From: a virus
Taxonomy: Duplodnaviria > Caudoviricetes
Length of the DNA stretch: 47,559 bases
Virus record (IMG/VR): IMGVR_UViG_3300037470_000196
Span: 1-47,559 of that record
Direction: 5' to 3' (one strand)
Shown here in pieces: positions 2,264 through 47,385 of the stretch. Positions within the stretch are counted from its first letter, which is position 1, and each line of letters starts with the position of its first letter. The notes under the pieces are model-generated. The model was given only the letters and a program-made list of their open reading frames with translations. It was not told where the DNA came from and ran no database searches. Made by a program: the position numbers and the translations under genes.

Positions 2264-2589
2264 GCCTCGTCCTCATCTAGCATTTCCAGGGCCCTGTTCA
2301 GGGAGTTCCGGGCCTCAGTTAGGTCCTGACGATAGTTCTTGCCGCCCCGTTTGCCTAGGCATAGGAGCTTTTTGACTGCGTGGTCTACTGGTCCTGCTGG
2401 TACATCAAACAACGTGATGACCCTATACACATCCACGTGTGTGGTGTGCCTGGGCAGCCGTTTAAAGTAGTGAGGATAGGTGCGGGCGTTTTCGGGTTTC
2501 GTTTCGCTTTTCAGCGTCTGATGTTCCTGCCATTTTTCATATGCTCGGTTCATTTCGTCTAGTGCAGTCAGGTTCTTGTCATCCATCAT
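2260..2589 (-). CDS. Conserved phage protein (DUF3310-like)
   Basis: PHYFK...VDVYRV...HAVKKLL...GKRGGK...QDLTEA...L pattern. Confidence 0.65.
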   Translation of the reverse strand: MMDDKNLTALDEMNRAYEKWQEHQTLKSETKPENARTYPHYFKRLPRHTTHVDVYRVITLFDVPAGPVDHAVKKLLCLGKRGGKNYRQDLTEARNSLNRALEMLDEDEA

Positions 2590-3113
2590 GCGCTCAGCCC
2601 GTGTTCGGCGACGACCTGATATGGCCGGCCCCCGCCCACTGTGCGGTAGAGTTTGATGCTACTGACACGCACACTGCCGAAATCATGATCCTTGAGGCGC
2701 TTGGCCATGCCCGAAAACGCAGGGGCGAAATCCCCGGACTGCTCTAGCTTGCCCAGTGTCAGGTGTGGATTGTAGGTGCCTTTTCCGCCCAGCGCTTGGT
2801 TGAGTTTTACCAAGTGGTGCTTACCTTCGGCCACCGTAGCATAAAGGACTCGTGGTCCTTTATTATTTACGAAATACCCCGTACCATTGAACGTGATATG
2901 GAAGGGCGATAGCCCACGACACGCTCTTTCCAAGGTGTTGTAGGCGAATGTTTCGGGGACTGCGCCCAGGAACAGTAGCGTAAGGTGCAACTTGTCCGGG
3001 CTAGTCCACGTTGCCCTTGGTACGACGGACCTCAGGTCGTCAACAGTCCTCAAAACTTCATTGCGCGTGGACTCGTGGTTGATTTCAAGGCCGTAAAAGA
3101 GATTTCCTGACAT
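2586..3113 (-). CDS. thpR: 2H phosphoesterase (ThpR/LigT-like RNA 2',3'-cyclic phosphodiesterase)
   Basis: Two HxT motifs: KLHLTLLFLG and YNPHLTLGK, plus GYF..PRVLYA and a C-terminal LYR....G.PY. Confidence 0.9.
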   Translation of the reverse strand: MSGNLFYGLEINHESTRNEVLRTVDDLRSVVPRATWTSPDKLHLTLLFLGAVPETFAYNTLERACRGLSPFHITFNGTGYFVNNKGPRVLYATVAEGKHHLVKLNQALGGKGTYNPHLTLGKLEQSGDFAPAFSGMAKRLKDHDFGSVRVSSIKLYRTVGGGRPYQVVAEHGLSA

Positions 3114-3716: not shown

Positions 3717-4081
3717 TCTACCTTTTCTGTGCTGTAGGGTATTATTTTACTGCGAGATTTACGACGGCTGCCTGTCATCCATTCTTCGATCGGCGTATTT
3801 TTTAGCCAGCGCTCCATTGTAGGAATGAATCCCATGTCCTCCATGACGTGATCTTCGCCTAGGTCACGCACGCATATCTGTCGTCCTGAAGAGTTGGTGA
3901 TGTAGGTTCCGAATACGCGCTCCAGTATGAAGATGCCGAAAGCACTGTGCAGGATGGCTCGGTGTCGAATGTCCGGCAGTGCTGCTTTGCTGGAGTCAAA
4001 GAAGTCGTGAATCGCCTGATAGTCTTCAGGCTTCCCTCCCCACTTCTTGGCAGAATTACGAGCGTGTTGGAGGGGCTTCAT
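3713..4081 (-). CDS. DUF6915-like protein
   Basis: HARNSAKKWGG..EDYQAIHDFFDSSK...RHRAILHSAFGI...GEDHVMED motif set. Confidence 0.7.
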   Translation of the reverse strand: MKPLQHARNSAKKWGGKPEDYQAIHDFFDSSKAALPDIRHRAILHSAFGIFILERVFGTYITNSSGRQICVRDLGEDHVMEDMGFIPTMERWLKNTPIEEWMTGSRRKSRSKIIPYSTEKVD

Positions 4082-7000
4082 ATCTTCACCGTAACCTTGG
4101 TGATAGCACGTGTAATGGCGGTGTAAAGATGTTTACGCGAGTCGTTACCGAATTGTCGAGATTCGTCCAGCACTAGGACGTTGTCCCATTGTGATCCCTG
4201 GCTGTTGTAGCCGTCAAAGCCGTTTTGCAAGAAACGTCCTAAACTGGGGACTGTAACACACATGGAAGGGCCCGTCATGTGCTCAATGTTGACAATTTGG
4301 TCGTGATGAAAATCCAGCATCTCTGGACTTGCCAGTTCCCGTGAGGTGTATCCAGTCAAACGAGCGTTCCCGTCTTTTGTTAGAAAGACGTTGACCGGTA
4401 CACGTTTACGCATGTCGCTCATTGCCTGAGCGTTTGCCAGACGATTATTCTTCTCAAGGCTAACGAAACCTACTTTGTCTCTAAATACTTGAACCGACCG
4501 ACCCTGAATATGCACACGGCGGTAGCTGGCATATTGTTTAATGCAGGAAATAATGCCCTGTCGTAGCAGTAGCAGTTGTACTTGGCTGCACATATCGGGG
4601 CCTGCGTGAGATGTGAGTTCGACAGAGTGATCCCTCTTGCTAACGCTGCCGTCTTCAAACAGGCCACGTAAGAATTTAGCCTGAATCCCAACCGGAGACT
4701 GTAGTACAACTCGCGGCACACCTTTGGCTTTAGGTGATAGACCGCCGTGACATCGCAACCAGTCAGATATTTGCGTACTGTTGATTTCACATTTCCATGC
4801 TGGTGATATGTCATGTGGCAGGACAATAGTCTGCAAACCAAAGAGTGAATTAACTAGCTCCGAGAATCTGTCCACAACGCTTCGATATCGTTTTACCAGC
4901 CTAAATCCGCTGTTGTAGATACAGCCATCTGCTACCATTAACCCCAGAAACTCAGCAAAGTCTTCCGTCATTTCGGTTGGCAGTTGGTGTACCTTGGCTC
5001 TTACATCGGTGGGGACTGGCCCTAACATACTCGGCAGATAGTTAGCTTGTACCGAGTTGCCCAGTCGCAGCCGTAGAAACTGGTTTACCTCTAGTTGGCT
5101 TGCGCACACCGGCTGGTACATTTGACCAGTCCACGACATCAGTTTGTGATCCGGGGTGACTGTCACGCAGTAGCCATCGCGGGTTGTTATGCGCAGCATA
5201 GGACCTTCTGGGTAGGTATGTTTTTCAGTGAACTCACGCATTCCTTCCGCAGTTCCGATGTATCCTTTATCCTGAAGGGAATCTATTGTCCGCAGGCCGA
5301 ATTCCGTTTCCACGAAGGTTTCTGGTGCGACGCATTTATGCGTCGTCAGTACATATCCATAAGTGAATGATTCCGCCTCCCTGATATCGAACCCGATGGA
5401 TTTCTCCTCTTTCTGCAATTTGTCAACCCACGTCAGGTCATCCGGGCCCACTGGGTCCTCAGTGTGCCCGTACTGCCTGAAGTATTGAGCGTGTGCCAGG
5501 ACACTAATCGGAAATCCACCTTCCTCAGGCACAACGGTCAGACTGACCTTGCGACGGCTAAACTGGTGACACTTTTTAACGATCCACAGGGAGCCGTTCA
5601 GTAGCCCTTTCTCGTGGTTATTGCGCAGGCAGACCAGTTTCTCGCAGGGTTGTGGAAACTCGCCTGAGAAGCCACGGAGGGCCCGCATTCGGGCATTGTT
5701 GACATGACGGGTCTTGTTACGGCCGCACAGAATGATGTCGGCCTCTATCGCCAGTTCCGGTGTAATTTTATGAACTACTGCACAGTTACCGTATACACCT
5801 TCAGGGATTCGGCGGCCCTCTCGAGCCATCGTCGCCAGTGTCAGGATAGGGGACTCCTGGGCCTGCCTGTGAATCTGGGTCAGCCTGAAATCGGGCTCAC
5901 CTTTCATGAAGTACCCTTCACCAAATACCGGGGGCAGCTGGCCTGGGTCGCCGAGGACTAGGACGCGAGTGCCAAAGGACAGGAGGTCTTTGGCAAGATC
6001 GTCAGATACCATTGAGCAGTTGTGGACTAGGCATCCGTTAACAGAAAAGGAATGATGCCGTGTCGCTTCAATGTCATAGAGATAGAGTTTTCCGTCGGCA
6101 TCCCTGAATTGATCCAATTCAGGATTTCCTTGTTCCAGAAACTGAACACTGTCCACCCGTGTGAAATCAGGAATTTTTTCTTTCGGGCGTCGGCGGCCTG
6201 AATACTTTTGGAATGGTGGCTGCCGCCGTGCACTTCGATGCATATTTTCAGTGTCCGGTGTGCTACGTCCAGCTTGTAGCAATGCGGTAGACCTCCCGTA
6301 GTCACGACAAGTTCCGATTCCCAGTCGGGTCCGAGAGCGTGCAACATCTTCCTCTGTGGTTCGGTCAGACCACGACCGTTCCCGCCCTGAATTTTCGGTT
6401 TGTGCCCACTGGCCTTGTGTGCCTCGCTGATTTTCTTGCACACGTTCGGGTCTGACGTGGGGTTTAGCCTTCGTATGCGGTCTATCTGTGCCAATGCTTC
6501 CGGTGTCCCAGAGGCCAGAAATCGTTTTCGGGCAGCACCTGCTTTTGCATTTCGTTCTGGGGTATATATTTTCTCCTTGAACCCCGGTTGACGCATCCAC
6601 CAGCGCGTTGAGCAACCTGCTTTGCAGAAACGACGGGTCCAACTGGCTGAACTGGGAGTAAATACTGTCCCGCAGCAGTCGCACGCACGAGGTTGTCTGA
6701 GCGAGAAGGCTTCCAGGTCTAAGGTGCTTAGCGAGGACGTTTCCCCTGGAGGTAAAGAAGATATGATCTTCGCTACACGTGACTGTCTCTCCTCCAAAGG
6801 TAATCTGCACCCCCGAACTGGCTTCTTTTCTCGATGTTCCACTAATAGTGTCCGTTCCGTTACTGTTTAGGATTTTGTCACCAACACGCAACTGGCTAAT
6901 GGGTCGCGGCCCGGTTGGTGTGTCTATCATTGTGTTGCCGACGAAACATTCATCAATGACGACAAGGTCTGCTTCCCGTACAGGACTGTCCAGGTTCAGC

Positions 7001-7446
7001 CGGAATACCGGGGACTGTGCGCTGGCGTGTAGTTGGGCGATTTCTTCCCTCAGGCGTACTACTTCCGGATGGACGTCGGCGTAGTAAGCGTCTTCGTCAG
7101 TTCCGCCTTTCATCTCGGCTAGCAATTCGTCCAATTGCTTCTGCTTACCGTCCACCGTGCTTTTGCCGCCTTGCCCGCTGGCCAGGTAAATGAGGCGATG
7201 AATGGTGCTCGCGCCCACGCAGCCGCGCTGCTGCATGACCAGGGCAGCTTTGCCTGTGAATGCAGCGTACAAGACGTTGATGTCTAGGAGTTTGACGATG
7301 TGCGGTACTGTCGATGATTTGCCGGTACCCGCTACTCCCTCGATTCGGAAGACCTGTTTTCCGTTGGGATCGTTGTACCAGCGTATTACCTCATCGCAGC
7401 ACAGGGATTGTTCTTCCGTGAGTTCAATCACAGAAACAGGCTCCAT
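4078..7446 (-). CDS. SF1B RecD/Dda-like DNA helicase interrupted by two inteins (mature about 435 aa)
   Basis: GVAGTGKS Walker A, AFTGKAA, STIHRLIY, VIDE|CSMV, LGDPGQLPPV, HRQA, NNHEKGLLNG, YVLTTHK|SQGSQW, LYTAITRA. Confidence 0.95.
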   Translation of the reverse strand: MEPVSVIELTEEQSLCCDEVIRWYNDPNGKQVFRIEGVAGTGKSSTVPHIVKLLDINVLYAAFTGKAALVMQQRGCVGASTIHRLIYLASGQGGKSTVDGKQKQLDELLAEMKGGTDEDAYYADVHPEVVRLREEIAQLHASAQSPVFRLNLDSPVREADLVVIDECFVGNTMIDTPTGPRPISQLRVGDKILNSNGTDTISGTSRKEASSGVQITFGGETVTCSEDHIFFTSRGNVLAKHLRPGSLLAQTTSCVRLLRDSIYSQFSQLDPSFLQSRLLNALVDASTGVQGENIYPRTKCKSRCCPKTISGLWDTGSIGTDRPHTKAKPHVRPERVQENQRGTQGQWAQTENSGRERSWSDRTTEEDVARSRTRLGIGTCRDYGRSTALLQAGRSTPDTENMHRSARRQPPFQKYSGRRRPKEKIPDFTRVDSVQFLEQGNPELDQFRDADGKLYLYDIEATRHHSFSVNGCLVHNCSMVSDDLAKDLLSFGTRVLVLGDPGQLPPVFGEGYFMKGEPDFRLTQIHRQAQESPILTLATMAREGRRIPEGVYGNCAVVHKITPELAIEADIILCGRNKTRHVNNARMRALRGFSGEFPQPCEKLVCLRNNHEKGLLNGSLWIVKKCHQFSRRKVSLTVVPEEGGFPISVLAHAQYFRQYGHTEDPVGPDDLTWVDKLQKEEKSIGFDIREAESFTYGYVLTTHKCVAPETFVETEFGLRTIDSLQDKGYIGTAEGMREFTEKHTYPEGPMLRITTRDGYCVTVTPDHKLMSWTGQMYQPVCASQLEVNQFLRLRLGNSVQANYLPSMLGPVPTDVRAKVHQLPTEMTEDFAEFLGLMVADGCIYNSGFRLVKRYRSVVDRFSELVNSLFGLQTIVLPHDISPAWKCEINSTQISDWLRCHGGLSPKAKGVPRVVLQSPVGIQAKFLRGLFEDGSVSKRDHSVELTSHAGPDMCSQVQLLLLRQGIISCIKQYASYRRVHIQGRSVQVFRDKVGFVSLEKNNRLANAQAMSDMRKRVPVNVFLTKDGNARLTGYTSRELASPEMLDFHHDQIVNIEHMTGPSMCVTVPSLGRFLQNGFDGYNSQGSQWDNVLVLDESRQFGNDSRKHLYTAITRAITKVTVKI
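4204..5334 (-). mobile_element. Intein 2 of the helicase (377 aa) with in-frame LAGLIDADG endonuclease
   Basis: Starts CVAPET after THK; block B VTPDHK; FLGLMVADG and FLRGLFEDG; ends GYN followed by S of SQG. Confidence 0.92.
6019..6948 (-). mobile_element. Intein 1 of the helicase (310 aa), inserted in Walker B (DE|C)
   Basis: CFVGNTMI start, CSEDHIF block B, LYDIEA...HSFSVNGCLVHN then C+1. Confidence 0.93.
6027..6842 (-). CDS. Zn-finger + Vsr/DUF559-like (PD-(D/E)xK-related) endonuclease nested in the +1 frame of intein 1
   Basis: CDCC...FCKAGC, KKISEAHK (NUMOD3-like), YKLDVA...ICIEVHGGSH...DARKKKFLISHGWTVFSFWNKEI. Start codon uncertain. Confidence 0.85.
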   Translation of the reverse strand: MEHREKKPVRGCRLPLEERQSRVAKIISSLPPGETSSLSTLDLEAFSLRQPRACDCCGTVFTPSSASWTRRFCKAGCSTRWWMRQPGFKEKIYTPERNAKAGAARKRFLASGTPEALAQIDRIRRLNPTSDPNVCKKISEAHKASGHKPKIQGGNGRGLTEPQRKMLHALGPDWESELVVTTGGLPHCYKLDVAHRTLKICIEVHGGSHHSKSIQAADARKKKFLISHGWTVFSFWNKEILNWINSGMPTENSISMTLKRHGIIPFLLTDA

Positions 7447-7767: not shown

Positions 7768-8979
7768 CTATCCCTTAACGCACAATACTGCGCTCAGGGT
7801 GTGTCTGATGTCAACTAAATCCTCTTGGCTTCTCATTACCGCGTCGATGTCCTTGTAGGCACCCGGAGTTTCGTCTAGCACACCTTCGTCTTTGCGGCAC
7901 TCCACACCCAAGGTGGCCCGGGCGTGGTCTTCCAGGGTGAAGGTTTTCTTGGCCTGTGTCCGTGACATCAAACGACCAGCGCCGTGTGAGCACGACATGA
8001 AGCTTTCGCGGTTACCTTTGCCCTGGACAATGTACGAACGCTTTCCCATGGCACCCGGGATGATGCCCCACATGCCGTCATCCGCGCGCAGTGCTCCCTT
8101 ACGTGTAACGATTACGTCGGACCCGAAGTGCCGTTCCCACGACACGTAGTTATGGTGGCAGTTCACAGCCTGGGCCTGAACTATGACAGGTTTTACGTGG
8201 TGCTCTAGCGTGTTCAGCGTGCGAGCCATCATGATTTCACGGTTAACAAGAGCATACTGCTGTGCCCATCGCACAGCCTGAACATAGTCACCGAAGTATT
8301 CGGATCCTTCCGGCAAGTACGCTAGGTTATAATCCGGCAAGTTGATGTGCCAGCGCTCCATCTCCTCTTTGGCCTTGGAGATGAAGTAACTACCGATGCG
8401 ATTACCTACGCCACGAGATCCGCTGTGCAGCATAACCCATACTGCGTCAGACTCGTCAAGACACACCTCTATGAAGTGGTTCCCCGTGCCCAGGGTGCCA
8501 AGATGTACTGCGGTGTTGCATCCACGCAACTTAGGGTGGTCTGCACACAGCAAGTCGAACTTGTCCTGCATGAGCGACCAGGGGGCTGCCACGTCCTTGG
8601 GTACTTCACTCCCCCAGGCGCCTTGATCCCCAGGTCCGCCGTTGCTGGTTCGTCCGTGAGGTACGGCGGCTTCGATGTCAGAGCGTAAGGTGGACAGTGA
8701 ATCCGGTAGGTCTTCTGCGCGTAGGTTGGTCTTTACTGCGCCCATTCCGCAGCCCAAGTCCACCCCGACGGCAGCTGGAATTATCACGTGTTTGGTGGCA
8801 ATGACACTTCCTACACAAGCCCCGTTTCCCCAATGTCCGTCGGGCATACAAGCGACATGCTTGTGAATGAACGGCAGTTGGCTCACGTTTTTCAATTGCT
8901 GCATAGCCGTATCCTCCAACGGCGGTACGTGATCGGTCCACAACTTAATGCGGTTGCCGTTTTCCGTTATGGCTTTCAT
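7768..8979 (-). CDS. rtcB: RtcB family RNA ligase
   Basis: MPDGH, VGVDLGCG, GTLGTGNHFIE, HSGSRG, CHHN, RKGA, SCSHGAGR, DETPGAYK, C-terminal VKG. Confidence 0.97.
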   Translation of the reverse strand: MKAITENGNRIKLWTDHVPPLEDTAMQQLKNVSQLPFIHKHVACMPDGHWGNGACVGSVIATKHVIIPAAVGVDLGCGMGAVKTNLRAEDLPDSLSTLRSDIEAAVPHGRTSNGGPGDQGAWGSEVPKDVAAPWSLMQDKFDLLCADHPKLRGCNTAVHLGTLGTGNHFIEVCLDESDAVWVMLHSGSRGVGNRIGSYFISKAKEEMERWHINLPDYNLAYLPEGSEYFGDYVQAVRWAQQYALVNREIMMARTLNTLEHHVKPVIVQAQAVNCHHNYVSWERHFGSDVIVTRKGALRADDGMWGIIPGAMGKRSYIVQGKGNRESFMSCSHGAGRLMSRTQAKKTFTLEDHARATLGVECRKDEGVLDETPGAYKDIDAVMRSQEDLVDIRHTLSAVLCVKG

Positions 8980-9032
8980 GGTGTGTACCAGTCGGGTTTA
9001 GGGAATCGCCCAGTGTACGTCCAGGTTTTCAT
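8976..9032 (-). CDS. 18-aa leader ORF (MKTWTYTGRFPKPDWYTP) coupled to rtcB
   Basis: GGAG ribosome-binding site upstream; its TGA overlaps the rtcB ATG (ATGA). Confidence 0.6.
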   Translation of the reverse strand: MKTWTYTGRFPKPDWYTP

Positions 9033-9075
9033 GGTGTTTTCTCCAGTCGGTAAATTAGCAATGCCGGCGGGATTT

Positions 9076-9110
9076 GTGCCGAGCTTCATGGCGCCGGCCA
9101 GCCTTTTCAA
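9076..9110 (-). repeat. Element P variant (P'): TTGAAAAGGCTGGCCGGCGCCATGAAGCTCGGCAC
   Basis: Aligns ungapped to P; 23 nt identical to 35921-35943. Confidence 0.85.
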
Positions 9111-9113
9111 CAT

Positions 9114-9158
9114 GTCAGGTAAAGAAAAGAGGATGGGGTTGTAACTGGGTTACCTGAC
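9114..9158 (-). promoter_or_regulatory. 9-bp stem (GTCAGGTAA/TTACCTGAC) presenting element B (GTTACAACCCCATCCTC)
   Basis: Perfect inverted repeat; the 17-nt loop motif is identical to 47435-47451. Confidence 0.75.
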
Positions 9159-9165
9159 GGGGCTC

Positions 9166-9200
9166 GTCACAAACTTCAAGGCGTTGAGCAGCCATATCAA
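9166..9200 (-). repeat. Element P (35 nt): TTGATATGGCTGCTCAACGCCTTGAAGTTTGTGAC
   Basis: Identical to 13420-13454; near-identical to 16204, 25796 and 37728. Confidence 0.92.
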
Positions 9201-9225
9201 CGTATCAGGAGTTTCCCAGAAGGTG

Positions 9226-10065
9226 TCAAAACTCTCGCGTTCTAATACAAGCGAACGGAATCTGGTCCCGACTCTCCGCACTTCGTTTCCAATTGTCCCC
9301 ATTGCTGAGGTCTTTGTTGGTGGGTCCGGATGAGTCTGTTCCCAGTAGCCCAACAAACTGATGCCCTACCGGATGTATGCACCAACTGACACGATGCCAA
9401 AATTCCCTCTCTCCGTCTCGATCTACGACAGCCGTCGGATTTGGTGGGCACGACATGGCGTACTCTAGGAATCCGGATCCGAACAGGTAGGAATCATATA
9501 CACCAGGAGAGGGATTAGGAAATCCATCGTCACTGAATTTCATATCTGTGTACCTCCTCCTGAATGAGTTTAGTGCACCGCTATGCATACACAGACCAGT
9601 TACGGAATTACCTTCCCCCATGTCCCTGCGGACTGCTCTCAGCGTATCTTCCGTGAGGTTGGTTACACCTTCGATGAACCTAGTCCCGGAGATGTCAACG
9701 ATCAGGTCACTAGCCCGTGCCTTGGCGCTGTTGGCCACCACGCCCGATATGACGGCGAGCACTGCTTTTTGAAACCTGGTCGCCCAGTAATGGCTAATCA
9801 ACTCCATCGGGTAGTCTTCCAGTAGGGATTCCGGCCAGTGTTGATTGCGGGAGAGTCGGACAGCCTGCTCTACATGGGACAGTCCATTCCAAGATGGCAC
9901 TGTGAGCAGTACTCCGCCCGGACTAGTGTGTCTTCCTGAATCTAGCCAATTCGTCAAATACCCGGAATGCACCGCCACTCTCGACTGTATAAACTTAGAC
10001 TTGGCTATTGTCTTTTCCCGACACTGTTCGGCGAATCAATGCGTGGATAAATTCGATATTGTCAC
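9226..10065 (-). CDS. Internally deleted paralogue of the major capsid protein, with in-frame TGA at 10036-10038 (open frame 9226-9978 from an internal GTG)
   Basis: Colinear with 46297-47385: HVEQAVR, YWATRFQ/YWARRFQ, DLIVDISG/DLTVDISG, YDSYLFG, WCIHPVGHQFVG/WCVHPMGHQFVG, GPTN, IPFA..RTRE. Confidence 0.9.
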
Positions 10066-10418
10066 TTTTGTCCTCCCTTACCCGCCGTCAAATACCTACG
10101 ACGAATCTTACCAGCCTCCCGGGACTGTTGTGCCAGCCATGCGCGGCGCTGGGCACGGTTCATGTCGGACAGCTCGATGCGGACCTTCAACTGAAGGTCC
10201 GAAGGCTTATCTACCATGCTCTTGGTACGCATGCCCTGGGACGCGATTTCGATGTTAGTGCGGCCCTTGGTTGCTGCCAGGTACTCGTCAATGGATTGTC
10301 CCGTGCCACCAACCTTGGCGCCGCGATCACGTGCGGGGATTGGTTCGTTGGTCAGGGACTCAAGAAATTCTTCGGTGTTTGTTGGGTTTTGACTAGTATC
10401 CATTTTTACTTGTTCCAC
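10062..10418 (-). CDS. Hypothetical protein (basic C-terminus)
   Basis: 118-aa ORF with MNRAQRRA motif; in operon. Confidence 0.65.
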   Translation of the reverse strand: MEQVKMDTSQNPTNTEEFLESLTNEPIPARDRGAKVGGTGQSIDEYLAATKGRTNIEIASQGMRTKSMVDKPSDLQLKVRIELSDMNRAQRRAWLAQQSREAGKIRRRYLTAGKGGQK

Positions 10419-10804
10419 TTGGGTTCCGGTTTGATGAATGTAGGCTCGGTCCTGATTATGAGGTTGGGTATAGCCTGCACCCCGTTGTCCTTGACGTGGA
10501 TTACGCCCTGGTCATCAGGGTCTCCCCCTGCCCATTCCATAGCGCCATTGAGTGTGTACCCCCATGGTCCTAGGTGGTTGTCTATGAGGTACTGTAGCCA
10601 CTCTACATAGTCGTAGAATTTTTCTGTTTCGTCCCAGACGATGGCCGTGCCATCTACGGCTGGCACCCATTGACAATAATAGCCCGGTACGTCGGACTCG
10701 TCTCGATGATCCGTGCTCGCAAAGTTTTGAAGGAATGCTGAGTGTTCAGCTGTTAGAGGCCTATCCAGCTCAAACCTGCCGTTGAAATTTGTCGTGTAGC
10801 CCAT
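10406..10804 (-). CDS. Conserved hypothetical phage protein
   Basis: MGYTTNFNG...CQW...WDETEKFYDYVEWLQYLI...LNG...W.G.D..D.G.I pattern. Confidence 0.75.
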   Translation of the reverse strand: MGYTTNFNGRFELDRPLTAEHSAFLQNFASTDHRDESDVPGYYCQWVPAVDGTAIVWDETEKFYDYVEWLQYLIDNHLGPWGYTLNGAMEWAGGDPDDQGVIHVKDNGVQAIPNLIIRTEPTFIKPEPKWNK

Positions 10805-10812
10805 GACTAGCG

Positions 10813-11037
10813 CTACCGTTCCTGGACACTAGTTTTGGCATGAATAGGTACAGAATCCAGTGCCCCGTTGTCGTCATCCAATCTGATCTGGATCTCGTGG
10901 TAACGATAACCTGGAGACTGTGTGCGCACGTAATTGTCTGCCGTGCACGAAGCCCATCCGCCGAAGCAGAAGAAGAAAAGGAAGGTCAGAGATAGTGTTT
11001 TGACAACCTTGTAGGTAAGCAAGTTATTCTTGTTCAT
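10813..11037 (-). CDS. Small membrane-anchored protein
   Basis: AAGGAG ribosome-binding site; N-terminal hydrophobic segment. Confidence 0.65.
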   Translation of the reverse strand: MNKNNLLTYKVVKTLSLTFLFFFCFGGWASCTADNYVRTQSPGYRYHEIQIRLDDDNGALDSVPIHAKTSVQER

Positions 11038-11077
11038 GTTGGTTCTCCTTTGGTTGTTATTTGTTATTCGTTATTTA

Positions 11078-11209
11078 CGCTTAAGTCGGCTCCCAACATT
11101 TGTTTCATGCGGGAACATACCAAAACCCGGTCGCGGGATCTCCCTACAGCGTCAGCTCCATCCGATGAACCTCGCTCGCGCACCATGCTGTTGGGAGCCG
11201 ACTTAAACG
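11078..11209 (-). ncRNA. Putative structured RNA closed by an 18-bp perfect (21-bp with G-U) inverted repeat
   Basis: TTAAGTCGGCTCCCAACA (11081-11098) pairs with 11189-11206; intergenic. Confidence 0.55.
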
Positions 11210-11330
11210 CCCCGAAGACCTGCCGCTTCGGGTCGGCACGATGTAAGTACCGTCACTGCCCACCTTGCGTTTGCCTGTACTGTTCCACCAGTACAACTGA
11301 CGCCCCTGTGGGCCGGGTCAAGTAAATCGA

Positions 11331-11355
11331 GGCACGGACACGTCGCGTCCGTGCC
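11331..11355 (-). terminator. Hairpin just after the SSB-like gene, possible terminator
   Basis: 9-bp stem GGCACGGAC/GTCCGTGCC followed by TCGATTTACTT (weak U tract). Confidence 0.5.
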
Positions 11356-11363
11356 CCAGATGG

Positions 11364-12311
11364 CTAGAACGCCGGCTCTTCCATCACCGCTGCTTCTTGC
11401 GCTTCCTCGCTGTCGTCCGCGTCCGAGTAGTCAACCCTGCCCAGCGCACCGGAGTCAACCAGTTGGTGGAACTGCTTACACCGCTCTAGTGCGTCAGCAT
11501 GCACTGGAGCCTTTTCGACGAACCGACAGCGGCTCCAGTTGCCACCATACGGCTCAGCTAGGTACTTGTACGAGTCCTGCTGTCCGGTCTTACCTGGCCG
11601 GAACTCCGTCTTCAGCACCGTACGGAAGGCGTACAGGGGCGATCCTTTACCGTTGGTGCCCTTGGGCGCCTCCGCCATCCCGGACCACCACGCCTTACGG
11701 GGGAAGATATTGGTACCGGCAAACGGAATCATAGCAACACCCAGTGGCGTAGTACCGTCAGCCGGATCGATCAGGACGACGTGCACTTCAACAGTGTATC
11801 CAAACTGTGTGCGGGTATCTGACTCTAGGCCACGCCACTCGTCGGGTCCGTTGGCCTTGTAGGCCTTGACCACACGGGGATCCGCATTTGGCCCGGTCAG
11901 TTCAGCGGACAACTTGGCGATGAATAGCCCACCGTCCTTGGACGACTTGCGCTCAATCACACAAGCCTTAGCGCAGATGGGCACGATAAGCAGTCCCTTG
12001 GTGCCGTCAAACACCTGGCCCGTGACACTGTTGTAAATGTCACCCTCCTTGATAGTGGACCCATCTGGGCGGTCCTTGAAGATTTTGCTGCTGCTCTGCA
12101 CAATCTTCAACATGGGGATGATCAACTCATCCGCCTTCACCTTGTGCTCAGCTGCTGCGTGATCCTCACCATAGGTGTAGTCCACATCGGGACCCACCAG
12201 CATGCCGGGCAGTGCTTCAGGTCCAGCAACAATTGCCGTCTCGGTCAAACCGTCATCCTCAACCTCGGCCACTGGTTCCTGTACGGGCGCCGCATTTTTC
12301 TTAGATGCCAT
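11364..12311 (-). CDS. Probable single-stranded DNA-binding protein
   Basis: ELIIPMLKIVQSSS motif; acidic C-terminal tail ending in Phe; replication-module context. Confidence 0.65.
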   Translation of the reverse strand: MASKKNAAPVQEPVAEVEDDGLTETAIVAGPEALPGMLVGPDVDYTYGEDHAAAEHKVKADELIIPMLKIVQSSSKIFKDRPDGSTIKEGDIYNSVTGQVFDGTKGLLIVPICAKACVIERKSSKDGGLFIAKLSAELTGPNADPRVVKAYKANGPDEWRGLESDTRTQFGYTVEVHVVLIDPADGTTPLGVAMIPFAGTNIFPRKAWWSGMAEAPKGTNGKGSPLYAFRTVLKTEFRPGKTGQQDSYKYLAEPYGGNWSRCRFVEKAPVHADALERCKQFHQLVDSGALGRVDYSDADDSEEAQEAAVMEEPAF

Positions 12312-12981: not shown

Positions 12982-13380
12982 TTATCCTATTGTGAGCAGT
13001 GCGGGGTTCAGCACGCCTCCGGATTCGTTAGCGCGTTTGCCTTCGTCTGATAGTTGCGTGTCTAGGTTGTGACACTGCCGTAGTTCTTCTCCATGTTCCC
13101 ACACGTGCGCCAGGATGCTTACGGCACATCCGTACATGAAACCCGTGATTCCGTTCGTGTCTGCCTGGCGGGAGGTTTCATTCGCCACATCCGCAACACT
13201 ACTGTCGGTGCAAAGTCGTGCTTCCATTAAACTGGCCCAGTCAGCCGCGTATGTGAAGCAACGTCGTCCGTATGGGTCGTATGTGAAGCAACGTCGTCCG
13301 TATGGGTCGGTATTGTTTTCTAGGTCCTTTTGCCAGTCTGCGAGTCTAGAGGGTTTAATACTGAAGTGTTTATGTTCCAT
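12982..13380 (-). CDS. Hypothetical phage protein with a 10-aa tandem duplication
   Basis: GITGFMYGCAV...W.HGEELR...GGVLNPA; DPYGRRCFTY occurs twice. Confidence 0.75.
   Translation of the reverse strand: MEHKHFSIKPSRLADWQKDLENNTDPYGRRCFTYDPYGRRCFTYAADWASLMEARLCTDSSVADVANETSRQADTNGITGFMYGCAVSILAHVWEHGEELRQCHNLDTQLSDEGKRANESGGVLNPALLTIG
13249..13308. repeat. Perfect 30-bp tandem duplication
   Basis: gtatgtgaagcaacgtcgtccgtatgggtc x2. Confidence 0.95.
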
Positions 13381-13419: not shown

Positions 13420-13454
13420 GTCACAAACTTCAAGGCGTTGAGCAGCCATATCAA
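13420..13454 (-). repeat. Element P
   Basis: Identical to 9166-9200. Confidence 0.92.
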
Positions 13455-13461
13455 AGTGGGC

Positions 13462-13555
13462 ATATTTTCTTTGGTCCAACCCTAACCCCCTGACAAATTA
13501 GTTAGGTGTTAAGGGAGTTGGTGAGACTTGGTTAGGGTTGGACCAAAGAAAATAT
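13462..13555. repeat. 26-bp perfect inverted repeat with 42-nt interior
   Basis: atattttctttggtccaaccctaacc (13462-13487) / reverse complement at 13530-13555. Confidence 0.9.
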
Positions 13556-15941: not shown

Positions 15942-16346
15942 TCAGTGCTCATTGTGCACTACGGGCGGTGCACCGTTAATATGGTTTATGGCCTCCTGGG
16001 GAGTCACGTTTTCCAGATCGCCCCATCCGGTTTCCGTAAACTGCAATCGTTCTGCTTCTTCATCTCCGTACTCATGCCGCCATACGTCTCTAGCCAGCCC
16101 GTCAACGTCATAGTTTTTGTACGTGTCCGTGATTCCTTCAGGAATCAGGCCCAGTCGGTGGGCTACTGCTACAATGTGGCCTGCGATGCAGCAGGGGGTA
16201 CCGGTCGCAAACTTCAAGGCGTTGCGCAGCCATATCAATTTTTTGTCCGTCAACTCGTTTATCCAGCCAAATTCGGTCATGTCAAATTGGCCTTCAGCCA
16301 TGATGCTTTTAGCGACTTCTTCTCTCAGGTCTTTCATTTCTTTCAT
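15942..16346 (-). CDS. Hypothetical protein (FDM...CCIAGH family), paralogue of 17539-17919
   Basis: Shared FDM, PCCIAGHIVA, RLG, W..YG..EA.RL.F, TP..A..HI.G. Confidence 0.8.
   Translation of the reverse strand: MKEMKDLREEVAKSIMAEGQFDMTEFGWINELTDKKLIWLRNALKFATGTPCCIAGHIVAVAHRLGLIPEGITDTYKNYDVDGLARDVWRHEYGDEEAERLQFTETGWGDLENVTPQEAINHINGAPPVVHNEH
16204..16238 (-). repeat. Element P inside coding sequence
   Basis: TTGATATGGCTGCGCAACGCCTTGAAGTTTGCGAC, translated as LIWLRNALKFAT. Confidence 0.92.
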
Positions 16347-17050: not shown

Positions 17051-17542
17051 TTATTTGATGGATCCTATTGTGTAGTCATAGTCAGATATTGCGTGCGGTC
17101 TTTCCACGATGTCCTCCGCGTATACTTCGCCGCACTTACATCGTCCGCGTACTGGCCTTCGATCCGGTATTCCGAAACACCGCTTACATAGGACAGGACG
17201 AGTGTGGGGACTGTCACGCATGTCACTAACTCTAGCGCCCCTTCTGTCGTTCTGGGCTTTTGAGTGACGCTGTTTCTGTTCGTCTTGGAACCTACGCTTA
17301 GCGTCTTGGCAGTCCGGGTGCCATTCTCGATGTTTACGCCGTACAGTCTTGTGCAGGGCAGTCATGCTCTTACCGCACCCACACTTGCACAGTGTGTCCT
17401 CCGTTGGTCTGTACCGAGGAGTGGTTATGTTCCGTATACGGTCTCGGGTACACTGCCACTTGATCGCTAGCTTGTACTGCGAAGTATTCCCCGATTGGTA
17501 TTCTCGCAGAATCTCCTCTTCTTGATCGGGAGTGGGTATCAT
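17051..17542 (-). CDS. HTH + Cys-rich protein, possible regulator
   Basis: EILREYQSGNTSQYKLAIKWQCTRDRIRNI (HTH-like); CKCGCG, CKRC, CKC. Confidence 0.65.
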   Translation of the reverse strand: MIPTPDQEEEILREYQSGNTSQYKLAIKWQCTRDRIRNITTPRYRPTEDTLCKCGCGKSMTALHKTVRRKHREWHPDCQDAKRRFQDEQKQRHSKAQNDRRGARVSDMRDSPHTRPVLCKRCFGIPDRRPVRGRCKCGEVYAEDIVERPHAISDYDYTIGSIK

Positions 17543-17919
17543 TTACCCAGTATGTGTGCGACTGCCATTTCAGGGGTAATCTCCCATATGTAGAAATTCG
17601 TATCGGCCCCGTAAAAGTCCAGACGATTTGCTTCGGCTTCCCCGTACTGCTGTGCCCATAGGAACTTTGCTGCTTCTTTCACACCGAGTGGCCTACCATG
17701 CACTTTACGGTATGCTTCTTTGCTAGGTAACCTCATGCCCAGGCGCGCGGCGGCTGCTACGATGTGGCCAGCAATACAGCAGGGTGACCCACAATCTGCA
17801 CCGGGTATAGACTTTTTCATCTTTCGTAAACGGCCTAAATACTCCCATGTGAGCATATCGAATGCGTCTTCGGTCAAGATGCCTTTGATGGTTTCTGCTT
17901 TTAAACTCTTCTTTTTCAT
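17539..17919 (-). CDS. Hypothetical protein (FDM...CGSPCCIAGH), paralogue of 15942-16346
   Basis: Shared motifs with 15942-16346. Confidence 0.8.
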   Translation of the reverse strand: MKKKSLKAETIKGILTEDAFDMLTWEYLGRLRKMKKSIPGADCGSPCCIAGHIVAAAARLGMRLPSKEAYRKVHGRPLGVKEAAKFLWAQQYGEAEANRLDFYGADTNFYIWEITPEMAVAHILGK

Positions 17920-18609: not shown

Positions 18610-19467
18610 ATGAGTGACATTTTGGATCTGCGAGAAGGCGATACTCCCATTGAACGGGTCAAGGTCCAGTATTGTACAGTCGGTCTACCCAGTGCCCCTA
18701 GTGTGCCCAGCATCCGCCTAGAACACTACGCGGATGCCCGTGTGGACGAAACGCGAGTAGTAGACGGTGTGACATGGCACGTGGTCAAGGTGGAGGATGA
18801 CACAACCGTGTGGTGGGGTAAAGGGTACGGAGGAAAGGCTCAGGTTTGCTGCCCTCCGTTGCCACCTAGGGACGAGAGTTATGGCAAGAAGCCGGGAACT
18901 CCTGTGTGGGTGCCGGTGCTGTTCCCAGGTCAGTCAGTTAACAGGATAGCGCGCAATCCGATAAATTCTCCGTTCCTGCGCATGCCGTTTGGTAAATATG
19001 GCCCCGTCGAGACGGAAGAAGATCATGGCCTATCCGTAGTTCGACAAGTGCTGAAAGTTCTGGGCGCCCAACTATTAGTTGACTGGGACAGATTGAAGGT
19101 AAAGTGCGAGGGTTGTGGTATCGAAGTCACTGACGGGGCACTTTGTCAATGGTACAGATTAGGTCTCGGTAGATCTCCAGATGATAGCGACTGGAAAGCG
19201 CTGGCTACCGGATTGGCCAACACTGCGCGTGCCGTGAGTAGGCAGTCGGAACAGCAGCACCATGACAGATTACTCAACAAGGTGTTGGACATGGATGACG
19301 ATGTTCTTGTTGATGAAATCACCATGCGTAGTCTGTGTGAACATTTCCCAAGGGAAATGGATGTGATGGCGCGTGCCTATTGTTCGCGTATCGGGCGTCT
19401 GTCGCAAGACGCTAAAAGAGGAATAATTACCGCCAGATCCGTAAAAAATGTACTGAGGAATAAATGA
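18610..19467 (+). CDS. Hypothetical protein, first gene of the plus-strand island
   Basis: About 285-aa ORF overlapping the thyX start; TTGCGC-17-CAGGAT just upstream of the ATG at 18610. Confidence 0.7.
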   Translation: MSDILDLREGDTPIERVKVQYCTVGLPSAPSVPSIRLEHYADARVDETRVVDGVTWHVVKVEDDTTVWWGKGYGGKAQVCCPPLPPRDESYGKKPGTPVWVPVLFPGQSVNRIARNPINSPFLRMPFGKYGPVETEEDHGLSVVRQVLKVLGAQLLVDWDRLKVKCEGCGIEVTDGALCQWYRLGLGRSPDDSDWKALATGLANTARAVSRQSEQQHHDRLLNKVLDMDDDVLVDEITMRSLCEHFPREMDVMARAYCSRIGRLSQDAKRGIITARSVKNVLRNK

Positions 19468-20756
19468 TCAAAATACTAGACCACGGGTACGTAAAACTGA
19501 TCGAAACCTGGGGCTCTGACGAGCGGGTTATTGAGGCTGCCAGGATGTCTACAGGTAAAGGGTTTCTTGGTTGGGGCACACCGGAACAACCGGGGGATGA
19601 AAAGCTGTTGGCGTATCTGTACAACAACTCGCACTACACCCCATTTGAGATGGCAGGCATGATTATCGAGGTGAAGGCTCCGATCCTAGTTTATCGAGAA
19701 TGGCATCGACATAGAACGCAGTGCCTTTCTGGCGACACCAAAATAACCTTAGTGACAAACACGTCTAGTGCGGTGACATACAAAAGAACCATCAAGCAGA
19801 TTTTTGACTTACGGCACGGAGGGGTAGAGGATCGCGAACCCGCCCCGCACAGAAACGGATACTCCAAAGCAGGAACTCCGGTAACTAGACCAGCTCGACG
19901 CAAGGTACCGTGGCGTACGCGAGTGCTACCTAACTGTCAAACTCGTCTGCTGAGGGTCCTAAATGAGGAAACGGGAGAATTCACAATCGCCCGCATGAAA
20001 GAAGTCTGGAAATCAGGGGTGAAGGACATCTACTCCCTCAATGTGGGCCGTATGGTGATTAACGCTAGTGCGCTGCACCCTTTTCTTACGGAACGAGGGT
20101 GGGTGCAGATGAAAGATATTGTTATCGGCGACCGTGTAGCCCGAATGGGCAAAGTCGTAAGCCAAGAGCGGGCCATACCGCCGTCTCTACGACAAGGCAT
20201 CGTTCGTTGGGAAACGGTGACTACATTGCCTATGTATGTGGGGCAAGAGATGACTTACGACATTGAGGTAGAGGGGCCTCATCACAACTACGTGGCTAAC
20301 GACATAGTCGTCCATAATAGCTACAATGAAATGTCAGCTCGTTACACTCCACTGCCAGATGAGAACTATATGCCCACCGTCGAACGGTTGATGCGCAACG
20401 CTGGTGGCACTAACAAGCAGGCGGGAACCGTGAAGGGGTCTGAGGAGATGACCCGCGGCAATGCCACGACGTTTCAACACAAGTTGCGCGAACAGTACCG
20501 ACAAGCCCAGGACGTGTATGAATGGGCGCTGAAGGTGGGCGTTCCCAAGGAACTGGCGCGAGTCCACCTACCCGTGGCTCGTTACTCACGAATGCGTGCA
20601 GGTGCTAGTTTGCGCAACTGGTTGGCATTTCTAACATTGCGCGATGCTCCCTCCGCACAGTGGGAAATACAACAGTACGCAAAAGCTGTGTCGTCGTTGA
20701 TTGCAGAGAATTTCCCTCGCACACATTCTCTGTACGTAACTCAAAGATCATCTTGA
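19464..20756 (+). CDS. thyX: FAD-dependent thymidylate synthase with intein
   Basis: EAARMS, HYTPFE, REWHRHRTQ|SYNEMSARY, PKELARVHLP, RNWLAFLTLR, AQWEI. Confidence 0.96.
   Translation: MIKILDHGYVKLIETWGSDERVIEAARMSTGKGFLGWGTPEQPGDEKLLAYLYNNSHYTPFEMAGMIIEVKAPILVYREWHRHRTQCLSGDTKITLVTNTSSAVTYKRTIKQIFDLRHGGVEDREPAPHRNGYSKAGTPVTRPARRKVPWRTRVLPNCQTRLLRVLNEETGEFTIARMKEVWKSGVKDIYSLNVGRMVINASALHPFLTERGWVQMKDIVIGDRVARMGKVVSQERAIPPSLRQGIVRWETVTTLPMYVGQEMTYDIEVEGPHHNYVANDIVVHNSYNEMSARYTPLPDENYMPTVERLMRNAGGTNKQAGTVKGSEEMTRGNATTFQHKLREQYRQAQDVYEWALKVGVPKELARVHLPVARYSRMRAGASLRNWLAFLTLRDAPSAQWEIQQYAKAVSSLIAENFPRTHSLYVTQRSS
19722..20318 (+). mobile_element. ThyX mini-intein (199 aa, no recognisable endonuclease)
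   Basis: CLSGDT start, SALHPFLT block B, TYDIEV...HNYVANDIVVHN then S+1. Confidence 0.92.
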
Positions 20757-24129: not shown

Positions 24130-24582
24130 TCATACGGTAAACGGCCCACGGACCGGACCAACACAGTATGGATCAAAGTAGCAAGCGGCTGATATTGCAC
24201 CTTCTAGGTCATCTGGAAATGCTCTTAGGTATCCTTGAGCCCATGGTGCGCCTGAGCCAATGGCGTCAGCGCCCCTAGCTTCGTATACATACATCCCATC
24301 AACCATGAATAGCTTGGTATGGGTCACCACAAGCATGCTGCATTTCTCGAAATCTACACGACTGGCGTCGTAATTGCGATGCAGCCACTTTGTCAGACTT
24401 TTAACCCCAGGATACTTCGGCCAACTGAACAAATGCTCAGCGGCAGACAATGCAGCGCTGTCGCCGGCCGTGCCCACCAGGTAATCGTGCACCCGAAAGT
24501 GTTTGGGCGCGTCACGTTTAACGACGCCCGTCTCTCGAGAGTCCGAGTACAAGATACCAGGTTTGGCGACTACACAGGTAAT
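24130..24582 (-). CDS. Ntn-hydrolase (HslV/proteasome beta-like) paralogue 2, apparent ATT start
   Basis: (I)TCVVAKPGILYSDSRE...GTAGD...AIGSGAPWAQG...AA..FD...G. Confidence 0.75.
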   Translation of the reverse strand: MTCVVAKPGILYSDSRETGVVKRDAPKHFRVHDYLVGTAGDSAALSAAEHLFSWPKYPGVKSLTKWLHRNYDASRVDFEKCSMLVVTHTKLFMVDGMYVYEARGADAIGSGAPWAQGYLRAFPDDLEGAISAACYFDPYCVGPVRGPFTV

Positions 24583-24586: not shown

Positions 24587-25075
24587 TTACCCCAGATATT
24601 CTACTTGACATTCACGCCCAACATCCATTGTTAGCGTTGCGGCAAACTGAATGGCATTCACACCGTCCTTAGGCGTCAGCTTGCGCTTTGACCGAATTCC
24701 TGCCAACCACCCTACAGCAAAGGGGAATCCACTACCTACCGCCCAGTACTCTGAGTCCAGCGGCAGTATACAACTGTCTCCGTTTATCTCTAGGATGCCG
24801 TCATGGGTTAGCACAAGGGTGTCGCCAATAGACTCCCTGCTGCCCCTGTCCCGAAGCATCTGTACGATGTTGGATATTGCTGCTTCTGGGCTGCTGATGT
24901 CCTGAACGCATTCCAGTATCAGGGTTTGCAACAACGCTGATCCCGCACATCCAAACAACATACCTGGTCCATGGCCTACCTTGTTCATCACGTACGGTCC
25001 CGTCATGAGTCCACAGAAGGTACTTCTACGATCGGCCGCCATCCAGCCGTCTTTGTGCGCAACAATACAAGTCAT
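24587..25075 (-). CDS. Ntn-hydrolase (HslV/proteasome beta-like) paralogue 1
   Basis: AGGAG ribosome-binding site; MTCIVA...MAADRR...K...GCAGS...WAVGSG.PFAVG...AI..A...VG. Confidence 0.82.
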   Translation of the reverse strand: MTCIVAHKDGWMAADRRSTFCGLMTGPYVMNKVGHGPGMLFGCAGSALLQTLILECVQDISSPEAAISNIVQMLRDRGSRESIGDTLVLTHDGILEINGDSCILPLDSEYWAVGSGFPFAVGWLAGIRSKRKLTPKDGVNAIQFAATLTMDVGRECQVEYLG

Positions 25076-25419: not shown

Positions 25420-25440
25420 GGGTCGTCTTGCCCACTCGGG

Positions 25441-46296: not shown

Positions 46297-47385
46297 TTAG
46301 GCCTCGCGGGTCCGGAGAACGGCGAAGGGGATGTTCTTGCGAGTTTGCGCGGAACGAGACCAGCTGGCCGCGTCATCCAGCACAGCGTTGGTGGGACCGG
46401 CGGTGTCCGTACCGATGCTGCCCACGAACTGGTGGCCCATGGGGTGAACACACCAGGCCACCCGATTCCACAACTCGTCAACACCCTGACCGTTGCCACC
46501 ATGGTTGTGGAACTCACGGGTCAGCGCGTTGGGGGCCGGCGCCATCGCAAAACGAAGGAATCCGGGACCGAACAGGTAAGAGTCGTAGATTTGACCGGAT
46601 TGCGGCATGCCGTCATCGACCGTCAGGCGAAGGCCATAAAACGTCTCGAAGAGCGGATTGCCCTCAGAGTCCTTCTCAAACTCAATCAGGTTGTTCTTGC
46701 GCATCCGATTACGAACCGCGGAGTGCACAGCCAGATTGGTGATTTGGTTGTCCGCGTCACCCAAGGTTTGCAACGTATCATTCAGCGCATCAGCATTGAA
46801 GTTGGTGATTCCGTTGACGAACGACCCACCAGAGATATCCACCGTCAGGTCACCCTGCGTGTGGGTATCCGTGCCGTTGGGCGCCAGGTCGTTATCCGCC
46901 ACCACACCGGCCAAGATAGCCAGAACGAAGCGCTGAAACCGACGTGCCCAGTAGGTGCCGGTTAGGCTACCCACAACCTCCAGGATGGAGGGGCTGCTGG
47001 CAGAAACACTCTGCGTCAACGAAGCAACTGACCAGTGCATGTTGCGCTGAACCCGAACCGCCTGTTCGACGTGCGCGGTGATAATCTGCGGCTCCAGCAA
47101 GGAAAACACTGCCGCGGGATCCTGGTAGTAAGGCGCCTGGGCATCGCTGCCAACACGCTCTTCCACCGAAGAATCAAGATCGTTCCACGTGGGCTGGGTC
47201 AGCAACAGGCCGCCCCCGCCCCCGCCCGCTACTCCGTTTACCCAGTTCTCTAGAACCGGATCGGCCTGAAGGATGCCAGAATTAACGAACTTGGTCAGTT
47301 CCTTGGTGCGCTCAATTGAATACCCAGTGAACACAGCCGGCGAGAAGCCGATGTTCTCAATTGCGGTCGTAGGAAAAAGTGCCAT
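46297..47385 (-). CDS. Major capsid protein
   Basis: 362 aa; F..Y..ERT.E...FVNSGI, P.WNDL, YW.RR.Q, AVHSAV, T.YGL...VDDGMP, YDSYLFG.G, HP.G; position upstream of head-tail genes. Confidence 0.92.
   Translation of the reverse strand: MALFPTTAIENIGFSPAVFTGYSIERTKELTKFVNSGILQADPVLENWVNGVAGGGGGGLLLTQPTWNDLDSSVEERVGSDAQAPYYQDPAAVFSLLEPQIITAHVEQAVRVQRNMHWSVASLTQSVSASSPSILEVVGSLTGTYWARRFQRFVLAILAGVVADNDLAPNGTDTHTQGDLTVDISGGSFVNGITNFNADALNDTLQTLGDADNQITNLAVHSAVRNRMRKNNLIEFEKDSEGNPLFETFYGLRLTVDDGMPQSGQIYDSYLFGPGFLRFAMAPAPNALTREFHNHGGNGQGVDELWNRVAWCVHPMGHQFVGSIGTDTAGPTNAVLDDAASWSRSAQTRKNIPFAVLRTREA

Follow-up and report, generated by a model that had tools for sequence, protein, structure and literature searches.

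The virus analysed here carries two genes for major capsid proteins (MCPs) of the SPP1 type: a full-length gene at the right end of the record and, far from it, a diverged paralogue from which lattice-forming loops have been deleted. The paralogue is a repurposed capsid gene of a recurrent and selected kind that is broken in this genome by a stop codon, and for which a role as a decoy for capsid-sensing bacterial defences is tentatively proposed. Capsid and terminase are proteins that are seen by bacterial pattern sensors and that are hard for phages to change; if the proposal is true, recurrently selected, lattice-stripped copies would constitute a counter-defence that mimics the trigger itself. 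Whatever their role, predicted monomeric HK97 cores appear to have been made at least twice in nature by the same loop deletions, and such proteins would be ready reagents for studies of capsid assembly and of sensors. Their genes are easily mis-annotated as capsid genes or written off as fragments.

A second capsid gene outside the head module

The window, i.e., the whole stretch of DNA analysed, is the entire virus record IMGVR_UViG_3300037470_000196 (47,559 nt, linear, completeness estimate 78%). It contains replication and nucleotide genes, a long-tail module, connectors and the MCP gene at the right end; according to the gene annotation, portal, scaffold and terminase are absent from the window. 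The sole solved sequence relative of the window MCP is SPP1 gp13 (E 2.5e-35). The paralogue is located between a cluster of small genes and rtcB (Table 1), 247 nt upstream of the latter and 36.3 kb from the MCP, in agreement with an earlier reading made from the sequence alone (the sequence-only reading). Its neighbours are replication and RNA-repair genes, and its position is not the one after portal and scaffold that is usual for an SPP1-type MCP. An RNA-repair-like set near the paralogue (1282-1794, 2586-3113 and 7768-8979; kinase/ATPase, 2H phosphoesterase and RtcB) is suggestive of a counter-defence region. No integrase is present among the ORFs scanned, no sigma-70 promoter match occurs within 8800-11500, and Rfam yields no convincing match.

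Table 1. Coordinates of the features discussed; positions refer to the window unless locus L008 (contig G001) is given.
Feature	Position	Strand	Remarks
Capsid paralogue gene	9226..10065	-	279 codons from GTG 10065, TGA at codon 10
Remaining 250-aa ORF from downstream GTG	9226..9978	-	no good Shine-Dalgarno
Codons lost through the stop	9979..10035	-	19 codons homologous to N-arm/helix α1*
Premature in-frame TGA, followed by T	10036..10038	-	reading frame from 10065
Shine-Dalgarno site of GTG 10065 start	10072..10079	-	-11.3 kcal/mol
Junction of 33-aa E-loop deletion	9877..9882	-	placed by gp13 alignment
Region of 11-aa deletion	9795..9831	-	short helix and start of spine helix
Junction of 18-aa A-loop deletion	9550..9555	-	gp13 A-loop 194-207
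Junction of 6-aa P-loop deletion	9415..9426	-	gp13 P-loop 261-264; position uncertain by ~3 codons
Upstream ORF	10062..10418	-	no assigned function; translationally coupled to paralogue
rtcB RNA ligase, downstream neighbour of paralogue	7768..8979	-	PF01139, E 8e-126
Full-length MCP	46297..47385	-	362 aa, SPP1 gp13-like
Solitary CRISPR repeat	9166..9200	-	25 nt after paralogue stop; identical to G001 array repeat
Variant repeat	9076..9111	-	11/35 mismatches; 54 nt beyond the 9166-9200 repeat
11-repeat array	L008, about 4109-4876		beside Cas12m-like gene
Cas12m/Cas12f-like gene	L008, 4970-6685	-	571 aa; between terminase and portal
ATPase-only second terminase	L008, 6830-7405	-	191 aa, no nuclease; between TerL and portal; ~80 nt after D5 motif

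By descent, the paralogue belongs to the SPP1-type capsid family. The ORF 9226-9978 on the minus strand (250 aa) matches phrog_247 major head protein with an E value of 1.2e-25 and is identical to the window MCP at 105/261 positions (pairwise E 4e-60); in the multiple alignment, paralogue and MCP share 124/278 residues (~45%), which bears out the earlier description of a diverged but colinear paralogue. A word-indexed search returned 113 matches, besides the paralogue itself only homologues of 335-408 aa, and the best non-self match is the window MCP (4.6e-48), followed by one at 5e-24. Compensated frameshifts are ruled out, since the whole homology lies in one frame.

Deleted loops and predicted fold

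Relative to the MCP, the paralogue displays the five in-frame deletions listed by the sequence-only reading, with the sizes given there: 33 aa (MCP residues 71-103), 11 aa (5+2+4 within 120-142), 7 aa (172-178), 18 aa (232-249) and 6 aa (292-297), in addition to a 1-aa gap and a 1-aa insertion. These were placed on SPP1 gp13 through an alignment with that protein and the boundaries stated in an excerpt of its structural description (PMC6813328). In the same excerpt, the E-loop tip and the P-loop meet at the three-fold axes to form inter-capsomere contacts in which Asp74 is implicated by the structure, the A-loop closes the hexon centre, and the N-arm with helix α1* constitutes the scaffold-contact region, the N-arm also being an inter-capsomere element. 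The largest deletion takes out residues 63-82 of the gp13 E-loop (57-84), Asp74 included, as had been surmised; it leaves a span of 14 residues. The further suggestion that the other four deletions affect lattice surface loops holds for the 18-aa deletion, which corresponds to the A-loop, and for the 6-aa deletion, which corresponds to the P-loop. It does not hold for the other two: the 7-aa deletion concerns a loop whose span varies in full-length MCPs as well (16-34 residues at 5-95%; 17 in the paralogue), and the 11-aa deletion sits in a short helix and the beginning of the spine helix.

The paralogue retains the spine helix, the P-sheet, the A-domain core and the C-terminal small domain. 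For the 269 residues beyond the stop, AlphaFold2 gives a model with a pLDDT of 84.6 and a pTM of 0.86, and the best Foldseek match of this model in the PDB is 6r3a, SPP1 gp13 (E 1.2e-12, TM 0.71); the paralogue is thus predicted to keep the HK97 core fold with A-domain, P-domain and spine helix. In the corresponding model of the MCP, the places of the two deleted loops are taken by a hairpin and by a strand-tip. In a complex prediction, MCP and paralogue together score 0.27 (mark 0.32). Judging from the loops that are lost, the paralogue would be unable to build a lattice or to assemble. While it shares sequence family and predicted fold with SPP1 gp13-type MCPs (phrog_247, PF20036; PDB 6r3a, 4an5), it fails the structural features of a working MCP that were tested. 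In contrast to these proteins, it is devoid of most of the E-loop, of the A-loop and of the P-loop. It is also a second copy at a distance from the head module, has a 2-4 times higher rate of evolution and harbors a stop at codon 10.

The premature stop codon and the likely true start

The sequence-only reading described an open frame of 250 codons and missed this stop. However, homology extends upstream of GTG 9978 and through the in-frame TGA, with a match to the own genome at 9880-10047 (E 7.8e-5) that contains this single TGA; the gene in fact comprises 279 codons, 269 of which are open past the stop. GTG 10065 is the likely true start: its Shine-Dalgarno site is the second strongest of 33 starts tested, and the codon overlaps the stop of the upstream ORF in the sequence GTGA. 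The Shine-Dalgarno values for the downstream candidates are -0.8 kcal/mol at GTG 9978 and, for a gapped pairing located only 2 nt from the codon, -6.6 kcal/mol at GTG 9972. The N-arm is encoded in the paralogue but cut off by the TGA. For residues 1-35, the similarity to P0003 was reached by 0/300 shuffles and that to the own MCP by 5/300, compared with 15-171/300 for four stripped proteins.

Recoding or suppression of the TGA was considered and rejected, since TGA is an ordinary stop that ends 17/40 genes here; no tRNA gene is found in the window, in G001 (the probable partner contig described below) or in G002. A Logan contig covering 9171-10597 at depth 8 differs from the window in no letter, which argues against an assembly slip, although the run, the only one listed, may be the source of the window, such that the agreement does not amount to independent replication. 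Given the TGA at codon 10 and the poor downstream starts, the present allele is probably off or yields a little product without the N-arm. The stop appears to be recent.

Selection on the paralogue

The paralogue has evolved under purifying selection, its synonymous sites being saturated and its conserved residues kept. Compared with the MCP, codon positions 1, 2 and 3 are 54, 67 and 32% identical, respectively, and 13/64 four-fold sites are identical; pS amounts to 0.78 and pN to 0.39, and the bootstrap upper bound of dN/dS is 0.25. Simulated neutral decay to 45% amino acid identity leaves third positions 69% identical and is expected to introduce ~6 stops, with a probability of 0.019 for one stop or none. 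As regards the hallmarks of a pseudogene, the frame is disrupted by one TGA, while the divergence is not neutral. Among residues invariant in three sister MCPs of the clade, 43/58 are kept at family-conserved sites versus 23/48 at clade-only sites (p 0.005), and all 7 other stripped proteins tested follow the same trend. Clade-invariant sites are kept in the P-domain sheet (8/11) and the spine helix (8/12), and conservation is lowest in the A-domain stretch 180-231 (13/33). The selection suspected by the sequence-only reading is thereby substantiated.

Five separate deletions would all keep the frame by chance in 1 of 243 cases, or in 1 of 81 when only those after the first are counted. On these grounds it can be argued that the product was still selected after the capsid function had been lost; some of the constraint could be a legacy of its time as a working capsid. 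At 0.72, the codon adaptation of the paralogue is the lowest of the genes tested (0.73-0.84) and falls within the range of off-frame controls (0.70-0.72).

Stripped homologues in related capsid lineages

A full HMMER search gave 244 matches, the best 150 of which are listed, and contributed short homologues that the word-indexed search had not returned; 279 sequences were aligned, and 264 of these span both ends. The length of the E-loop is bimodal, with 7-15 residues in 8/264 end-to-end homologues and at least 31 in the other 256. Besides the window paralogue, the E-loop-less group consists of P0123, P0126, P0152, P0270, P0159, P0161 and P0177, which represent six clusters, P0152 and P0270 forming one; P0210, a sequence without its start, is a ninth stripped protein. 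The glycine motif of the P-loop is found in 0/9 stripped versus 231/256 full-length proteins, whereas loss of the whole A-loop is confined, among the stripped homologues, to the window paralogue. The N-arm and helix α1* are kept in all stripped homologues that have a complete start, and the open frames of the other stripped lineages encode 245-327 aa. Among the best 150 of the 244 matches, the nearest stripped relative of the paralogue is 38% identical, and no close orthologue is present.

In a tree of 26 rows, chosen from 71, the paralogue and P0123 are nested in a clade with the window MCP, P0122 and L005 (100/99), and the other six stripped proteins in one with L011, L010 and P0271 (100/98). 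The placement of the paralogue holds with P0123 left out. A single clade for all stripped proteins is rejected (p-AU 3.5e-7); on this sequence phylogeny, stripped forms originated two or more times among related capsid lineages. The end branch of the paralogue measures 1.1-1.3, compared with 0.27-0.48 in its full-length sisters, and in both groups the end branches of stripped proteins are ~2-4 times as long as those of full-length sisters. In the best tree, the paralogue is not the sister of its own MCP, sisterhood itself not being rejected (p-AU 0.19). Since it is not placed beside the MCP of its own genome, the gene is either a paralogue of long standing or a sister gene that was captured, rather than a fresh duplicate.

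The other stripped homologues are known from protein sequences alone, which does not imply that they are second copies. Viral scans with P0159, A3, P0123, P0177 and P0152 did not find the loci of these proteins, two of the scans each giving one full-length MCP, and a scan of genome contigs with A4 gave no match. The viral scan with the paralogue itself returned one weak 36-aa match, which was not confirmed by the capsid profile. In a search for phages with two capsid homologues, suggested by the sequence-only reading, a second copy was not seen in 14/14 related IMG/VR records, only 2 of which are complete and both distant (MCPs 34-37% identical), and in GenBank phages 744 records contain just 749 matched places. 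A second, stripped capsid gene is a rare trait.

A probable partner contig with a second terminase

The head module missing from the window very probably resides on G001 (10,140 nt; locus L008), a contig on which a viral scan found, as an array, a 35-nt repeat that also occurs in the window. G001 encodes scaffold, head-morphogenesis protein, portal and a Cas12m-like protein beside the 11-repeat array. Its scaffold gene is cut short ~6 codons from where the G002 homologue ends, and the window starts 174 nt ahead of the MCP, the corresponding distance in G002 being 170 nt. GC content is 53% in both window and G001, and their tetranucleotide distance (0.118) compares with 0.121-0.143 among slices of the window itself and with at least 0.173 for 14 other loci. 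A 33-nt motif, D5, is present in the window at 857-889, 25440-25472 and 37544-37576 and four times on G001 (L008 3815, 7488, 8334 and 9695), and is absent from the 14 other loci. It lies upstream of genes including tail tube and portal and is a candidate phage promoter or operator; by eye, a looser copy seems to be present in the MCP leader, and a relaxed D5 search returned only its best match. No overlap joining window and G001 was found.

In comparison with G002, the portal is identical at 350/514 positions (68%) and the MCP at 55%. The TerL of G001, whose C-terminus runs off the contig end, is 50% identical to G002 TerL. The contig encodes in addition a second, ATPase-only terminase, which is identical to G002 TerL at 65/188 positions (score 204, the best of 500 shuffles reaching 55); the Walker A lysine is replaced by arginine and the Walker B stretch is not retained. 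Given that G001 is the probable partner of the window, the phage probably has, as judged by sequence comparison, a stripped version of its terminase as well as one of its capsid protein. The Cas12m-like effector matches the PADLOC models Cas12f (1.2e-41) and Cas12u1 (2.2e-39) and, in the PDB, Cas12m 23vw (E 7e-18); cas1 and cas2 were not seen on G001.

Possible functions of the stripped capsid protein

Both MCP and terminase are well-established triggers of bacterial immunity. In the portions of the reports at hand, Avs7, Avs8 and Avs10 bind the MCP's A-domain and appear to target monomers (10.64898/2026.01.04.697583), CapRel binds the MCP 1:1 with predicted contacts to the P-domain sheet and the spine helix, and a link to capsids also exists for Lit, PifA and Pycsar (PMC9712102). 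An excerpt of a further report describes detection of terminases and portals by Avs systems (10.1101/2025.06.06.658234). The chance falls just short of even that the paralogue is an early, monomeric capsid-fold decoy against such defences, which has been switched off or N-terminally cut here. This selected, fast-evolving copy of the phage's capsid lineage has lost E-loop, A-loop and P-loop; the HK97 core is predicted to stay, and lattice-building would be abolished. The stripped protein, presumably monomeric and presumably expressed early, would then occupy the capsid sensors of the host before the real MCP appears, and a sensor bound without activation would leave the phage protected. High rate, kept fold, missing contacts and a place among replication genes are the traits to be expected of a competitive decoy. 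The 191-aa terminase on G001 may play the same decoy role. The stop at codon 10 would remove or shorten the capsid decoy in this genome.

As far as excerpts of the two reports go, the sensors Avs7/8/10, Dsr1 and CapRel bind the HK97 core of their MCP ligands, which is kept in the paralogue; unlike the paralogue as proposed, these ligands activate defence (10.64898/2026.01.04.697583; PMC9712102). The P-domain sheet and the spine helix, contacted by CapRel, are well kept in the paralogue, which counts in favor of a decoy. In contrast, the fit to A-domain sensors is poor, since stretch 180-231 of the A-domain is least conserved and the A-loop is gone. The excerpted Avs report also states that these sensors recognise core folds, leaving variable extensions unbound, and that isolated core segments of other targets activate them (10.64898/2026.01.04.697583); a capsid reduced to its core could thus set off defence instead of blocking it. 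That such triggering was the reason for the loss of this allele is speculation. Capsid decoys, truncated second capsids and truncated terminases paired with Avs are not described in the literature searched, which lay mostly outside subscription journals, and a capsid decoy is not named in the excerpt of PMC12409349. The decoy idea is directly testable against cloned Avs7/8/10, Dsr1 and CapRel systems. With somewhat more reserve, it may be that this phage group repeatedly converts the proteins most exposed to sensing into stripped, non-functional decoys, a capsid fold lacking lattice loops and a terminase ATPase lacking catalysis and nuclease, against sensors of the Avs, CapRel and Dsr1 types, and that these decoys are gained, tuned and lost quickly. 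The codon-10 stop would be one such loss, and this phage would hold two decoys, with the Cas12m repeats possibly serving to cut the transcript behind the capsid decoy.

An unlikely alternative holds that the paralogue belongs to a kit for inter-phage competition and acts as a dominant-negative poison, the stripped subunit joining the capsomers or binding the scaffold of co-infecting relatives and halting lattice growth. A chain terminator would need exactly the loss of inter-capsomere loops, and the N-arm and helix α1*, the scaffold-contact region in SPP1, persist in every stripped homologue with a complete start. The probable partner contig carries the Cas12m-like effector with its array, and, according to an excerpt of PMC11656645, elements compete with one another by means of type V-M systems and viral mini-arrays. 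However, the spacers of the array have no match in the window beyond 14 nt and none in G002 or GenBank phages, and the strongest effect of such a poison would be expected on the phage's own, 45%-identical MCP. Moreover, the A-domain, which makes the intra-capsomere contacts, is the most diverged part, and because no integrase was found among the scanned ORFs, there is no evident lysogenic state in which a poison could be deployed.

Less probable still is that the stop is tolerated or adaptive, a reading that can overlap with the others. Either re-initiation at GTG 9978 or 9972 would produce a low level of N-arm-less product, or the fold would bind another host partner such as a protease, a chaperone or an encapsulin. 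Since, going by SPP1, the N-arm is the inter-capsomere element still left, its removal would amount to a further step of stripping and would fit this reading, as would the open 250-aa frame, from whose second GTG a 248-aa protein is called, automatically, in two databases. Against it, neither GTG has a good Shine-Dalgarno site, a restart would have to occur 57 nt past the stop, and the N-arm is kept in all other complete-start stripped homologues.

There is likewise only a slight chance that the paralogue regulates, or is a minor component of, the phage's own head assembly as a timer, a scaffold sink or a vertex protein. Structural capsid paralogues are known: T4 gp24, a vertex protein and paralogue of the capsid protein of its own genome, is essential, is encoded next to gp23 and assembles into the shell, and SaPIbov5 Ccm is a repurposed capsid homologue. 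In addition, the scaffold-contact helix of the paralogue is conserved up to the stop. Yet the gene is 36 kb from the head genes, none of the three D5 copies of the window is nearby, a nonsense codon is present, the gene evolves 2-4 times as fast as sister MCPs, and neither of the 2 complete related genomes has a second copy. Ccm, named by the sequence-only reading as a precedent, proves to be a poor one. According to the excerpted account, Ccm alone forms no capsids, but it is encoded by a satellite, retains both N-arm and E-loop and becomes part of pentamers (PMC8569155). The paralogue is therefore not Ccm-like: it is encoded by a phage, in a window that has full MCP, connector and tail genes, and it is devoid of the loops needed for incorporation.

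The least probable account, a relic in which a duplicated gene or a captured capsid gene of a sister phage is decaying and the signal of selection stems from its life as a real capsid, agrees with the stop, the lowest codon adaptation, the lack of a close orthologue and the best tree, but is countered by five deletions that all keep the frame, by one stop instead of the ~5-6 expected and by the deletion of the same lattice loops in independent lineages with open frames, so that it may hold for the present allele without accounting for the family.

CRISPR repeats and other features of the window

The window contains five copies of the 35-nt repeat with 0-4 mismatches (9166-9200, 13420-13454, 16204-16238, 25796-25830 and 37728-37762), accompanied by two variants (9076-9111 and 35921-35956), and all copies are in the sense of minus-strand genes. 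Behind the paralogue, the repeats at 9166-9200 and 9076-9111 look like a one-spacer mini-array. In run X1, the depth of the repeat core is 74-120 versus ~8 for the phage, and a contig of this run consisting of repeat, 36 nt and repeat has a depth of 8.6; the G001 array contains the same spacer. Solitary repeats are possibly RNA-processing sites, mini-arrays or RNA anti-CRISPRs. Hairpins of the repeat are no better than those of shuffles. A CRISPR link to the capsid genes was tried and dropped: across the window, G001, G002 and L011, any target of the 20 nt after each of 7 solitary repeats would carry at least 4 mismatches.

A 17-nt sequence is common to the mini-array spacer (9129-9145) and the leader of the real MCP (47435-47451); it apparently lies in a hairpin loop at both sites and is too far from the repeat for a guide seed. 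Its 11-nt core recurs at 35896-35906, behind the variant repeat at 35921. One repeat copy is located in frame inside ORF 15942-16346 on the minus strand, whose paralogue at 17539-17919 has unrelated residues there. Elsewhere in the window, a Dda/RecD-like helicase gene (4078-7446, minus strand) contains two intein-like inserts, one with a LAGLIDADG domain, a ThyX gene (19464-20756, plus strand) carries an intein, and two genes for HslV-family peptidases are arranged in tandem (24130-24552 and 24587-25135, minus strand). An exact 30-nt tandem duplication (13248-13307) is found within ORF 12982-13380, and long intergenic inverted repeats are present at 13462-13555, with perfect arms of 26 nt, and at 11078-11209, with arms of 21 nt.
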